This document shows positions 28,043-31,395 of a stretch of 49,455 bases of DNA, piece after piece. The notes below the pieces were generated by a model that made no database searches, was not told where the DNA came from, and saw nothing but the letters and a program-made list of their open reading frames with translations. Position 1 is the stretch's first letter. Each line of letters opens with the position of its first letter. Both the position numbers and the translations under genes were made by a program. The stretch is from contig CAYLLU010000005.1 of NCBI GenBank assembly GCA_964384845.1, positions 12,212 through 61,666 of the forward strand. The letters run 5' to 3'. This stretch comes from an uncultured Dehalococcoidia bacterium. Its GTDB lineage: Bacteria > Chloroflexota > Dehalococcoidia > Lucifugimonadales > CAJWER01.

Positions 28043-28543
28043 TCAGACCCCTATTCCCTCGACTTCCACGGAGGATGTTTGGTTCGGGATGAGATCTTGA
28101 TGGCTCTCAAGGTGGTCTAGATAAAGTATTCCATTCAAGTGATCAATCTCATGTTCCAATACTTGGGCCAATAGGCCTTCGGCCCGAAGTCGAACCAACT
28201 TCGACTGCCGGTCGAGCCCCTTGGCCTTGATCAAAATAGCGCGGGTCACTATGGCATGGTAGCCAGGTACGCTTAAGCACCCCTCTTCGACATCTCGCTC
28301 ACCTTCTCGATACGTTATTTCGGGATTGACGAATACCCGAGGCTCCTCCTCCGGAAGCTGAATTGCGATAACGCGTCGTAGCACGCAGATTTGGTTGGCG
28401 GCCAAGCCCACTCCTCCCGCGTCATACAACGTGTCGATGAGGTCATCGGCTAGTACTAATGTAGATCTGTCGATCTTGCGTACCTTCTTGGCTTTTTGCC
28501 TGAGCGCAATGTGGGGATATTCTAGTATGGGTCGTATGGCCAC
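28043..28543 (-). CDS. def: Peptide deformylase
   Basis: GVGLAANQ, EGCLS, HEIDH. Confidence 0.97.
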   Translation of the reverse strand: MAIRPILEYPHIALRQKAKKVRKIDRSTLVLADDLIDTLYDAGGVGLAANQICVLRRVIAIQLPEEEPRVFVNPEITYREGERDVEEGCLSVPGYHAIVTRAILIKAKGLDRQSKLVRLRAEGLLAQVLEHEIDHLNGILYLDHLESHQDLIPNQTSSVEVEGIGV

Positions 28544-28597
28544 TTAGATTCTCCGAGTACGTCTTAAGCAAAAGCGGCCCTTGCCACTCCCTGAGAG

Positions 28598-28627
28598 ATT
28601 ATATCTATCCAGAGACTGGGCTGTAAA
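28598..28627 (-). promoter_or_regulatory. Sigma70-type promoter for def-nucleotidyltransferase-secD-secF
   Basis: TTTACA-N18-TATAAT on the minus strand, ~55 nt upstream of the def start. Confidence 0.55.
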
Positions 28628-29078
28628 GTGAGCCGCGGTACTCAAGACCTCGAATCTTCCGGAAGCTTCAGGTTGCTTCTTGCCGTGTTCTATAGCTGGG
28701 AAGCAAGGGGGCGAATTCGCGGTGCCCCTAAGGGTAATAATTTTGTTGGAATTCGTCATGATTATTGGTACTTACCTCGGTGGTAGTCTAGTAATAAATG
28801 CCCAAGGCAGAGCATATCTCACGCTGGTGTGTCGGTCAGTAACGCCTCCACGTTATCAAGTCATCGATACTGGGTATGGGTTCGATCGTACGTTTCTCCG
28901 CGGTGCGATGGGGAATTACCAAGTAGATTGCCTATAGCTGGATGTTAATCTTGCCGGTAGTTGAGCCACTTGGGGGTCAGGCCTATACCAAATCATGCGG
29001 CTGGTTATGTTCCAGACATAACCAGCGGGCCGATTCGCGGCTCCGCGAAAAATTCATGGAAAACAGATGTTCCAACTA

Positions 29079-29108
29079 TTGACAAGCACATTTGTTCTGC
29101 ATTAAAGT
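29079..29108 (+). promoter_or_regulatory. Sigma70-type promoter in front of the candidate ncRNA
   Basis: TTGACA-N18-TAAAGT; predicted start at ~29115-29116 coincides with the first base of the closing stem. Confidence 0.5.
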
Positions 29109-29115
29109 GTATTCA

Positions 29116-29262
29116 GACACGGAGACGGGGTTCTCGCGAAACCCATAGTGCAACCGTACCGCCCAGTCATCCATAGTCCCTCTTGGGTGCTCCCCTCGAT
29201 CCCCCTCGATCGTCTAAGACGGCGTGGAGTAAAAGTTCCACTGATGGCTGGGCGGCCGTGTC
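29116..29262 (+). ncRNA. Candidate structured non-coding RNA of unknown family (~147 nt)
   Basis: Ends pair (GACACGG/CCGTGTC); 13-bp helix CCGCCCAGTCATC/GATGGCTGGGCGG; hairpins GGGTT..AACCC, CGTC-TAA-GACG and GTGGAGT-AAAA-GTTCCAC; promoter upstream; no credible ORF. Confidence 0.6.
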
Positions 29263-29631
29263 GTTCCCGGGGCCACGCGGTGAGGATTCACAAAATTTGT
29301 TGGTAGTCCTTAGGCCCTAAGTAGAATTGGTTGATCGAGGTTAACGAGAGCATCATAACCAATTTTGTAGTGGTCGAGATAATCGTCTAAGACATGTTGA
29401 TTGGACTATGGTACGTCTTAGGAGATTTGCGTATCTGATCTGTGGGCGTCTAGTAGAAATAGACTTCCTGAATACCGACTCTGATTTCGCTGTGATCCGA
29501 ACAGGGTGTGTAGAGCGGCCCAACTCCCACTGTGCCTTGAAGGTGCCATTCAATAATCATTCTATTGCTGATTCTTCCCTCTATTTGGATTCATCATACG
29601 AGGACTGCGCTCAAGAAAACCGCACTAACCC

Positions 29632-31395
29632 CTATCGCCTGCCGAACTCACGATCCAGGCGTGCAGACGTCAGATGGATCATCGTCGGCCGACCATGAGG
29701 GCAGGTGTGGGGCAGTTTGCAGGCCTCGAGTTGGCGGGTCAGCTCTGACATCTGCTGCTGTCCGAGTCTCATGCCAGCCCTAATTGCCCCATGACATGCC
29801 ATCGAATATGCCGCACGTTCCTCCCACGACTCGAATCCACCACCCTCCGCCATCGATTCCAGCACATCCACAAGTCCCTGACCGGGGTCGTTTCCAGAGA
29901 GTAATGCTGGAACACCCCTGAGGATGAATGTGTGATCTCCGAAAGGCTCCACTATGAACCCCAATCCTAGGACTATGTCGGCGTGAGTTTTGACCATCTC
30001 ATTCTGACGCGGATCCAGTTTGACAGTCACTGGCTCCATGAGACTCTGAGATTCGGGTGCCCCTGTCGTGGATTTCCCCAAAACTCTTTCGAAAACGACC
30101 CTCTCATGGGCCGCATGTTGGTCTATGAGATAGATGCCGTCGGGCCCTTCAGCGGCGATATAGGTCACTTGGACCTGCCCCAGTACTCGAAGTGCGGGCA
30201 GAGCATCTCGTAGTAGCATCGTCTCCTGCAAGTGTGGTGTCGAATGAGTCTCTATAGTGGTGGGAGATGCAGGCTGGCCGGCGGCCGGTGGTTCTCCTAT
30301 AGGCCATATTGGACTAAGAGGAGGGGGCATAGAGTGGCCCTGTGCAATTGATGTGGTGTTACCGGTGGGTTGATTACTAAGCGTAGGGATCGGTGTGTGT
30401 GTGTTGAGCGTACTACGGACAGCCTGCTGTAGTGCCGAAAAGACTGATCCCTCGCGTCGGAACCGGACCTCGGTTTTCGAGGGGTGCACATTCACGTCTA
30501 TCTCATTGGGAGGGACGGAGATGTGGACCACGGCTAGGGGAAAGCGCCGCTCCATCAGAAATCCCCGGTAAGCCTCTTGCAGCGCGTATGTCAACATCCT
30601 ACTATGGACCCATCGGCCGTTGATGAAGATGGTGATGTGATTTCGATTAGAACGAGTTATTGAAGGCGGACCGATCATCCCTGCCACCACGACCTTGGAT
30701 TCATCTGCATCGTGTAGGTCGGTGTCAATGGTTATCATCGAGTGTGCTAACTGGGGACTGTATAGGTCTGAGACCACCTCACGTAGGTCACCGGAACCCA
30801 AGGTCCCGAAGCTTGTAAATCCATCGATGTTTAAGGTGAACCTAACCCCAGGGTAGGCAAGTGCGTAGCGGGAGGTTACAGTTTGGACACGGGAGCCCTC
30901 TGCAGCTGGTGTTCTGAGGAACTTGCGCCTGGCGGGGAGGTTCTTGAACAGGTGGCGTGACGTTATTATGGTGCCCGTAGTGGCTCCAATCGGGCCGTTG
31001 AGAATCACCACTCCATCCGTTAGCTCCGCGTGTGTTCCCTGTTCTTCGGTGGTCGTCTGTGTCACGATGGCTATGTCGGAGACTGCAGCGATGCTAGGCA
31101 AGGCCTCACCTCTGAAGCCCAATGTTTTGACTGTCTCAATGTCCTCTGCGATCGTCAGTTTACTAGTGCTGAACCTCTCGAAAGCCAGTTCTACCTCGGA
31201 GGCAGGGATTCCTGAGCCATTGTCCGCAACCCGGATTTCATCGATGCCGCCCGCCGAAAGCTCAATCGTAATTTCGGTGGCGCCTGCGTCCAAAGAGTTT
31301 TCCAGCAGTTCCTTGACCACCGAAGCTGGGCGCTCGATTACCTCTCCGGCGGCAATCTTGGACGACACGTCGATGGGTAGGAGTCGGATGGGCAT
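29632..31395 (-). CDS. mutL: DNA mismatch repair endonuclease MutL
   Basis: IAAGEVIERP, KELLENSLDAG, DNGSG, GFRGEAL, DVNVHP.K.EV, DQHAAHER, CPHGRP. Confidence 0.98.
   Translation of the reverse strand: MPIRLLPIDVSSKIAAGEVIERPASVVKELLENSLDAGATEITIELSAGGIDEIRVADNGSGIPASEVELAFERFSTSKLTIAEDIETVKTLGFRGEALPSIAAVSDIAIVTQTTTEEQGTHAELTDGVVILNGPIGATTGTIITSRHLFKNLPARRKFLRTPAAEGSRVQTVTSRYALAYPGVRFTLNIDGFTSFGTLGSGDLREVVSDLYSPQLAHSMITIDTDLHDADESKVVVAGMIGPPSITRSNRNHITIFINGRWVHSRMLTYALQEAYRGFLMERRFPLAVVHISVPPNEIDVNVHPSKTEVRFRREGSVFSALQQAVRSTLNTHTPIPTLSNQPTGNTTSIAQGHSMPPPLSPIWPIGEPPAAGQPASPTTIETHSTPHLQETMLLRDALPALRVLGQVQVTYIAAEGPDGIYLIDQHAAHERVVFERVLGKSTTGAPESQSLMEPVTVKLDPRQNEMVKTHADIVLGLGFIVEPFGDHTFILRGVPALLSGNDPGQGLVDVLESMAEGGGFESWEERAAYSMACHGAIRAGMRLGQQQMSELTRQLEACKLPHTCPHGRPTMIHLTSARLDREFGRR

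Follow-up and report, generated by a model that had tools for sequence, protein, structure and literature searches.

The spacer between the genes for peptide deformylase (def) and MutL in an uncultured Dehalococcoidia bacterium holds a real, conserved and structured + strand RNA gene of marine Dehalococcoidia, whose product matches no catalogued family and is a candidate for a new RNA family. The gene lies in a stretch of 49,455 nt of contig CAYLLU010000005.1 (assembly GCA_964384845.1), which we refer to as the window. An initial annotation, made from the sequence alone, had proposed a stand-alone, unclassified structured RNA gene at this place. That proposal is borne out, as the RNA is conserved, its helices covary and it has a promoter of its own. 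It is mainly on account of the conservation and covariation, both of which are present in Dehalococcoidia relatives, that the locus stands beyond chance. To the features described at the outset we add two LexA-like boxes at the promoter, conserved runs of C within the RNA and a decayed pit gene upstream.

Dehalococcoidia and SAR202-type bacteria, most of them uncultured, abound in the deep ocean, and to our knowledge almost nothing is known of RNA regulators in them. The candidate RNA family at this locus is clear in its structure, has a conserved core that can be delimited and is putatively controlled by LexA.

The def-mutL locus and the structure of the RNA

The assembly has a size of 1.89 Mb and is 95% complete. 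Its def and mutL genes, 1.09 kb apart, flank the + strand RNA gene; both are confirmed to lie on the - strand, so that the RNA is not a 5' UTR, as had been argued from the start (Table 1). The spacer between them is not empty, because its upstream part is filled by the remnant of a phosphate-transporter gene (pit). What is left comes from the last 40% of that gene and is split over three fragments, each in a different frame, which together span residues 188-329 of 340. An intact pit gene, recognised by Pfam PF01384, occupies the equivalent position in relatives, and tblastn matched no second copy elsewhere in the assembly; the decay of pit in this small 1.9 Mb genome looks like gene loss. Immediately 3' of the remnant is a hairpin with 20-nt arms that are 80% complementary (28991-29035), probably the relic of the pit terminator. 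On the def side, a 71-codon ORF (28544-28759, - strand) abuts def upstream in the same orientation and overlaps the predicted def promoter; a Pfam search with it gave no match, and it is probably not a gene. On the mutL side, the RNA is followed by about 370 nt of AT-richer DNA (29263-29631; 43-50% GC) with several inverted repeats. This segment gave no Rfam or Pfam match, has no other copy in the genome and is missing from the marine relatives. A 12-nt word is common to the RNA (29209-29220) and to this downstream spacer (29382-29393).

Table 1. Features of the def-mutL region in window coordinates
Feature	Position	Strand	Basis
def (peptide deformylase)	28043..28543	-	PF01327, E = 2e-43
Decayed PiT/PHO4 phosphate-transporter (pit) remnant	28631..28986	+	tblastn; alignment with relatives; PF01384 on intact relatives
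Box 1, AAACAGATGTTC, palindromic LexA-like box 6 nt upstream of the -35	29061..29072	+	9/10 of GAACANNTGTTC
-35 TTGACA	29079..29084	+	promoter scan; TTGA invariant in 15/15 aligned promoters, 5 families
Box 2, GCACATTTGTTC, 12-nt palindromic LexA-like box inside the 18-nt spacer	29086..29097	+	9/10 positions
-10 TAAAGT	29103..29108	+	promoter scan; TA...T kept in homologues
Predicted sRNA, ~147 nt	29116..29262	+	5' end inferred from the -10; fold; R1 140.2 bits
P1	29116..29122 pairs with 29256..29262	+	fold
P2, 5' side hairpin (29128-29132 with 29140-29144)	29125..29157	+	fold; lineage-variable
P3	29159..29171 pairs with 29243..29255	+	fold; inverted repeat of 13 nt, 92% complementary
C-rich module	29190..29209	+	sequence, fold
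Two inner hairpins, 29211-29221 and 29224-29241	29211..29241	+	fold; variable in homologues
3' strands of P3 (29243-29255) and P1 (29256-29262)	29243..29262	+	sequence, fold
mutL, convergent with the RNA gene	29632..31395	-	PF01119, PF08676, PF13589

Searches for known RNA families came back blank, and the novelty suggested by the initial annotation stands. Rfam at the gathering threshold reported no family in the window; at E values up to 10 over 28400-29800, it gave only a chance match to mir-344 (E = 1.9), which lies outside the element and arises from the hairpin at 28991-29035. ARAGORN detected no tRNA or tmRNA in the window.

The helices P1 and P3, the 5' side hairpin P2 and the inner hairpins were recovered from both sequence and fold where they had first been drawn. 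Within the C-rich module, a C4 run (29192-29195) precedes a small hairpin (29197-29200/29206-29209) whose loop is a C5 run (29201-29205). The sequence after the closing helix contains no U-tract. The + strand folds with a minimum free energy of -61.9 kcal/mol (z = -2.94), and none of 200 shuffled sequences was as stable; for the - strand, z is -1.61 and 10 of 200 shuffles were equally stable. Two homologues gave z-scores of -4.46 (L005) and -3.27 (L015). Over the family, free energy does not discriminate between the strands, the - strand being equal or better in 8 of 16 copies.

Evidence for the fold comes from covariation. A MAFFT alignment of 13 copies, which was not fitted to a model of the RNA, shows pairing in 93.3% of the cells that belong to the 20 base pairs of P1 and P3, and sliding the partners lowers this to 26-42%; in six pairs both sides vary, and none of 500 shuffles reaches the covariation score. 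The 16-copy alignment made with our covariance model R1 (see below) is fitted to the model and so biased towards it; there, 90.7% of the helix cells are paired, as against 30-42% with slid partners, eight of the 20 pairs change on both sides (16 cells), and the covariation score of 0.280, compared to 0.178 for shuffles, is again reached by 0 of 500. Taken separately across the homologues, P1 is paired in 83.8% of cells with three of its seven pairs changing on both sides, and P3 in 94.2% with five of 13 doing so. The copy in L073 keeps the long helix with a wholly different sequence. Among the 311 cells, G·U combinations outnumber A·C combinations by 33 to 11, which favours an RNA of the + strand and upholds the strand assignment made at first from the G-U pairs. 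The promoter, moreover, has the same (+ strand) orientation in all copies.

Not all parts of the structure are equally widespread. P2 is missing in L057 and L032, and P1 is missing in the nine genomes of a sister genus, so that both are lineage-specific. The three-way junction seen by the initial annotation thus holds for part of the RNA family and fails in those nine genomes. The sister-genus RNA has a 5' hairpin, then a 12-bp main helix that is invariant genus-wide, and variable sequence thereafter; inside the main helix lie a C-rich stretch and a hairpin with the loop CCCCCA. A core of about 75 nt is near-invariant across the nine copies, and the C-runs are invariant in them. Each of the 16 R1-type copies has two or more runs of at least four Cs in its centre, and in many copies the order is C-run, AAAGC, short hairpin, second C-run. 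The core common to all forms, with the sub-types aligned separately, consists of a long GC helix with two C-runs at its tip.

Homologues, distribution and synteny

BLAST with the 197-nt element against 40 relatives gave no match because the body of the RNA is too diverged. The first two homologous loci were obtained with nhmmer, using the whole spacer against the DNA downstream of mutL in relatives. The resulting three-way alignment has a strongly conserved promoter followed by a diverged RNA with a similar fold; the promoter is the best-conserved part of the locus, and the RNA body has diverged beyond the reach of BLAST. Scanning with the promoter pattern returned 13 stretches from species-representative genomes, among which six Dehalococcoidia/Chloroflexota MAG records contain the RNA or its start, and 21 stretches from metagenomes, eight of them RNA genes. 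In its strict form, the pattern was found in 6 of the 401 genomes of the order and its reversed control in 0. The promoter pattern also occurs in five Anoxybacillus genomes (L033, L036, L039, L040 and L042), at one common locus before a short ORF.

The model R1 was built from 13 copies and brought in three more genomes; it aligns 16 homologues at 33-166 bits, with copy lengths of 156-198 nt. Run with filters off over 20 mutL loci, R1 returned weak matches only, of which those in L007 (11.7 bits) and L020 (10.5 bits) are real as judged by inspection of promoter and core. Further copies, in L007, L011-L013, L019 and L020, were found by inspecting weak matches and the promoters downstream of mutL, and BLAST with one diverged copy detected the RNA in nine of nine genomes of the sister genus. 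In total, the RNA is found in 20 reference genomes from five families of the order, to which eight complete metagenome copies are added. In the window's own family, it is present in 13 of 15 genomes and missing in G002, which is 61% complete, and in G004; the copy of G001 ends at the contig end.

Model-based counts are smaller. R1 detected the RNA in 8 of 151 genomes of the order and in 2 of 15 genomes of the family, and R2 in 2 of 151 genomes of the order; these large runs scored only 16-19 candidates per genome, so that the counts are lower bounds and do not describe the distribution. Together, the two models, each of which is specific to its own lineage, find the RNA in at least 10 of the 151 sampled genomes of the order, and two more genomes there are known from synteny alone. 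One genome, G022, has seven R1 look-alikes of 130-190 nt scoring 28-53 bits (L070 and L074-L079), which come without a LexA-type promoter; their 5' arm is rich in C and their 3' arm in G, with C-runs in between. This seven-copy element may be a multi-copy relative of the RNA or an unrelated repeat.

The usual gene order is def (-), pit (+), RNA (+), mutL (-), and the complete set is found in L037; L057 and L073 lack pit, and the window has only its decayed remnant. As the RNA persists where pit has been lost and has its own promoter, it is not the 3' UTR of pit; nor is it the leader of the downstream gene, since that gene is convergent with it. Synteny with mutL is kept across the five families. 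Calculated from the coordinates, the distance from the RNA end to the mutL stop is about 0-45 nt in L005, L032, L037, L057 and L073, and the BLAST match lies about 40-50 nt from mutL in four sister-genus genomes; in L007, the RNA abuts the mutL stop. The gap widens to 370 nt in the window and to about 35 kb in two sister-genus genomes, and in five marine metagenome copies no mutL match was obtained in the roughly 500-600 nt of downstream sequence. The recurrent adjacency to mutL raises the question of a link between DNA-damage signalling and mismatch repair.

The promoter and its LexA-like boxes

The promoter TTGACA-18-TAAAGT (29079-29108, +) has 10 of 12 matches. The initial annotation had noted that its spacing equals that of the def promoter, and the promoter scan agrees, placing TTTACA-18-TATAAT at 28627-28598 (-), likewise with an 18-nt spacer. 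Of the two boxes that accompany the RNA promoter, Box 2 sits inside the promoter spacer, where LexA could block the promoter, and all 15 promoters compared, drawn from five families, have its G.ACA and GTT unchanged. Box 1 is present in most homologous promoters, with one G invariant in all 15, and is lost or altered in L073, L019 and L020.

In form, Box 1 and Box 2 resemble LexA operators of the Gram-positive type. The LexA consensus of Corynebacterium glutamicum is given as TcGAAmAnnTGTtCGA in PMC5014011, and each box matches it at 9 of 10 positions, the 10-position consensus having been picked after the boxes were seen. The genome encodes a LexA, on contig C19 of G000, with LexA_DNA_bind and Peptidase_S24 (S24) domains. 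A Y-family polymerase gene (dinB-type, PF00817) is preceded by a GAAC-N4-GTTC box matching at 8 of 8 positions and abutting the -10 (TATATAAT); this box is found at G000:C49:15978 (L096, ~2478), about 100 nt upstream of the gene, which runs off the contig. In six genomes, the lexA promoter has two boxes, one of the GTACATTTGTTC type and one of the GCACATGCGTAC type, and one box is nearly identical to Box 2. For recA, AAACATACGTGC lies over the -10 in two of six genomes, and a related form is present in a third.

At the scale of the genome, such sites are as frequent as chance would have it, with no enrichment at either threshold: by our own estimate, about 56 sites are expected against the 52 that match at 9 or more of 10 positions, and about 720 against the 706 that match at 7 or more of 8. 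Among the 52, Box 1 and Box 2 are the only pair 12-60 nt apart. Other intergenic sites precede genes unrelated to SOS. With a weight matrix derived solely from the lexA and recA boxes, Box 2 reaches 11.9 bits and Box 1 reaches 8.2 bits, and at least 60 positions in the genome outscore Box 2. The lack of enrichment, these modest scores, the changes to Box 1 in three lineages and the choice of consensus after the fact all speak against the LexA reading. As an independent hint in its favour, the promoter pattern derived from the sRNA genes alone also retrieved seven near-identical metagenome loci that are not sRNA genes, and in the one of these checked by Pfam, the pattern stands at the start of a divergent lexA facing a gene for a LysM protein. 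The double-box lexA/LysM loci (L045, L047, L058 and L060-L063) have an unrelated bacterium as their source, and the layout typified by L045 resembles the pair of lexA and a division inhibitor in Bacillus. At the level of motifs, the sRNA promoter looks to be under DNA-damage (LexA) control. A limited search of titles and abstract openings returned no relevant literature on sRNAs or LexA in Dehalococcoidia or SAR202, and there is older work on LexA in Dehalococcoides.

Function of the RNA and comparison with known systems

The explanation that we favour, with moderate confidence, is that the gene encodes a new SOS-repressed, trans-acting sRNA that works like the actinobacterial 6C RNA without being a member of the 6C family. 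We infer for it repression by LexA, release upon damage, stabilisation by pairing of its ends and action of the C-runs on ribosome-binding sites. Transcription of the + strand from a sigma-70-type promoter would yield a product of about 150 nt, with 150-200 nt in relatives. Since the promoter has two LexA-type operators flanking or overlapping it, LexA would repress the gene, keeping it off until DNA damage triggers the self-cleavage of LexA. The 5' and 3' ends pair into the long GC-rich closing helix, for which covariation argues, and which probably makes the RNA more stable and may double as a terminator. Two single-stranded C-runs are exposed at the tip of the helix, one within the loop of a small hairpin. 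By analogy with 6C, these C-runs are likely the active part of the RNA and would base-pair with G-rich ribosome-binding regions of target mRNAs, whereby the sRNA would adjust their translation in the course of the SOS response, in the manner of 6C RNA. Two further points weigh against this explanation: C-runs are complementary to ribosome-binding sites in general, and the closing helix is not followed by a U-tract.

The C-runs or the helix might alternatively bind a protein, such as RNA polymerase in the manner of 6S/Ms1 RNA, Rho or a binder of C-rich single strands. Paired ends and a compact, stable fold are typical of protein-binding RNAs, the near-invariant core of about 75 nt in the nine sister-genus copies would suit a protein surface, and no 6S RNA was detected in the assembly, which leaves that role formally vacant. 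We nonetheless regard such a function as unlikely: the body of the RNA evolves fast, the models R1 and R2 are lineage-bound with matches in at least 10 of 151 genomes of the order, and an operator layout of the damage type is unexpected for a housekeeping 6S RNA. As for the divergent 6S/Ms1-like identity considered by the initial annotation, it is not sustained: no 6S or Ms1 model matched in the window, and the fold is not a rod with a central bubble; over the whole assembly, RF00013 gave 0 matches at E up to 1 among the 20 candidates scored. Convergence with mutL opens another route, in which the RNA acts in cis, either through SOS-induced read-through of a weak terminator that yields an antisense transcript of the mutL 3' end or as a helix terminating transcription both ways. 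The lack of a U-tract after the helix, an RNA end about 0-45 nt from the mutL stop in five loci and abutting it in L007, a BLAST match about 40-50 nt from mutL in four sister-genus genomes and the synteny across five families all accord with it. On the other side are the 370-nt gap of the window, the gap of about 35 kb in two sister-genus genomes and the five marine metagenome copies with no mutL match in about 500-600 nt downstream; a terminator, furthermore, needs neither a conserved promoter of its own nor conserved C-runs, and we consider action in cis quite improbable. A version that we hold to be equally doubtful has the gene couple the SOS response to mismatch repair, cleavage of LexA leading both to the sRNA and to read-through into the convergent mutL, into which transcription would run because there is no U-tract terminator. 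If this were true, MutL would be transiently lowered, with more mutation and more recombination between diverged sequences in a streamlined, uncultured lineage of the ocean, and the tail-to-tail arrangement with mutL across five families would be functional rather than accidental.

Two further readings depart from a regulatory RNA altogether. The transcript could be a small mRNA for an SOS-induced peptide, for instance a type I toxin. The LexA-controlled toxin genes tisAB and dinQ of E. coli, which are accompanied by antisense RNAs, offer a precedent (PMC5014011), and the copy in the window is overlapped by two ORFs, one of 45 and one of 52 codons. Neither ORF has a Pfam match, however; over the 16 copies, the longest + strand ORF has anything between 19 and 50 codons and none is conserved, the copies differ by indels (156-198 nt), and conservation tracks helices and loops, so that we take a peptide to be very unlikely. 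That the locus is a DNA-level element, namely a repeat, a recombination site or a retron template, and not an RNA gene, is what the long inverted repeats and the seven weak, promoterless look-alikes of G022 (28-53 bits) might suggest; we judge it extremely improbable. The element is single-copy in its own 1.89 Mb genome, which rules out there the dispersed, MITE/REP-like repeat that the initial annotation had named as a possible pitfall, the excess of G·U over A·C (33 vs 11) favours an RNA strand, and the conserved promoter is oriented. The likeness to a retron msr-msd, which had also been remarked upon initially, does not hold up either: the locus is not a retron, because the 95%-complete assembly has no reverse transcriptase (no RVT_1, PF00078), and none was found beside any homologue. 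Its neighbours are pit, def and mutL.

Against this background, the RNA can be set beside several known systems. It shares with retron msr-msd the terminal inverted repeats that enclose hairpins, and differs in having no reverse transcriptase. With 6S and Ms1 RNAs it shares a similar size, paired ends and a stand-alone gene, but it lacks their central bubble between two long arms, evolves fast and is found in limited lineages. In the Firmicutes, the RNAs RoxS and RsaE pair exposed C-runs with G-rich ribosome-binding sites. The principle proposed here is the same; there is no sequence or model match to RoxS/RsaE, and the regulators and architecture differ. Within the E. coli SOS response, the sRNAs istR and agrB are antisense and act as cis-encoded antitoxins of tisB and dinQ (PMC5014011). 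The present RNA is likewise small and, by its putative operators, linked to the LexA regulon; unlike them, it has no toxin ORF beside its gene.

The closest parallel is the 6C RNA of actinobacteria (cgb_03605 in C. glutamicum, 6C/B11 in Mycobacterium tuberculosis), which is also a small, stable, stand-alone RNA with C-rich single-stranded loops. According to PMC5014011, LexA binds the C. glutamicum 6C promoter, which shows about threefold derepression when LexA is missing; the RNA aids survival after DNA damage, and its loss sensitises cells to mitomycin C and UV. Few sRNAs are known to be under LexA control, and the same paper names only istR-1, agrB and C. glutamicum 6C as reported up to 2016. 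For M. tuberculosis 6C, the C-rich loops are described as pairing with mRNAs without a chaperone (PMC6486639). Membership in the 6C family was considered and rejected, as there is no Rfam model match and size, architecture and phylum differ; the homologue records are titled Dehalococcoidia or Chloroflexota, not Actinobacteria. The RNA described here is longer (150-200 nt) and has a closing helix of 13-20 bp, and although a C-run lies in a hairpin loop both in the window and in the sister genus, the overall architecture is not that of 6C. The putative operators differ as well, with two here, one of them in the promoter spacer, and only one in 6C, some 50 bp ahead of the start. Should the favoured explanation prove true, a distant phylum would hold another C-rich-loop sRNA with control of the SOS type, unrelated to 6C, which would suggest that the design has arisen more than once.
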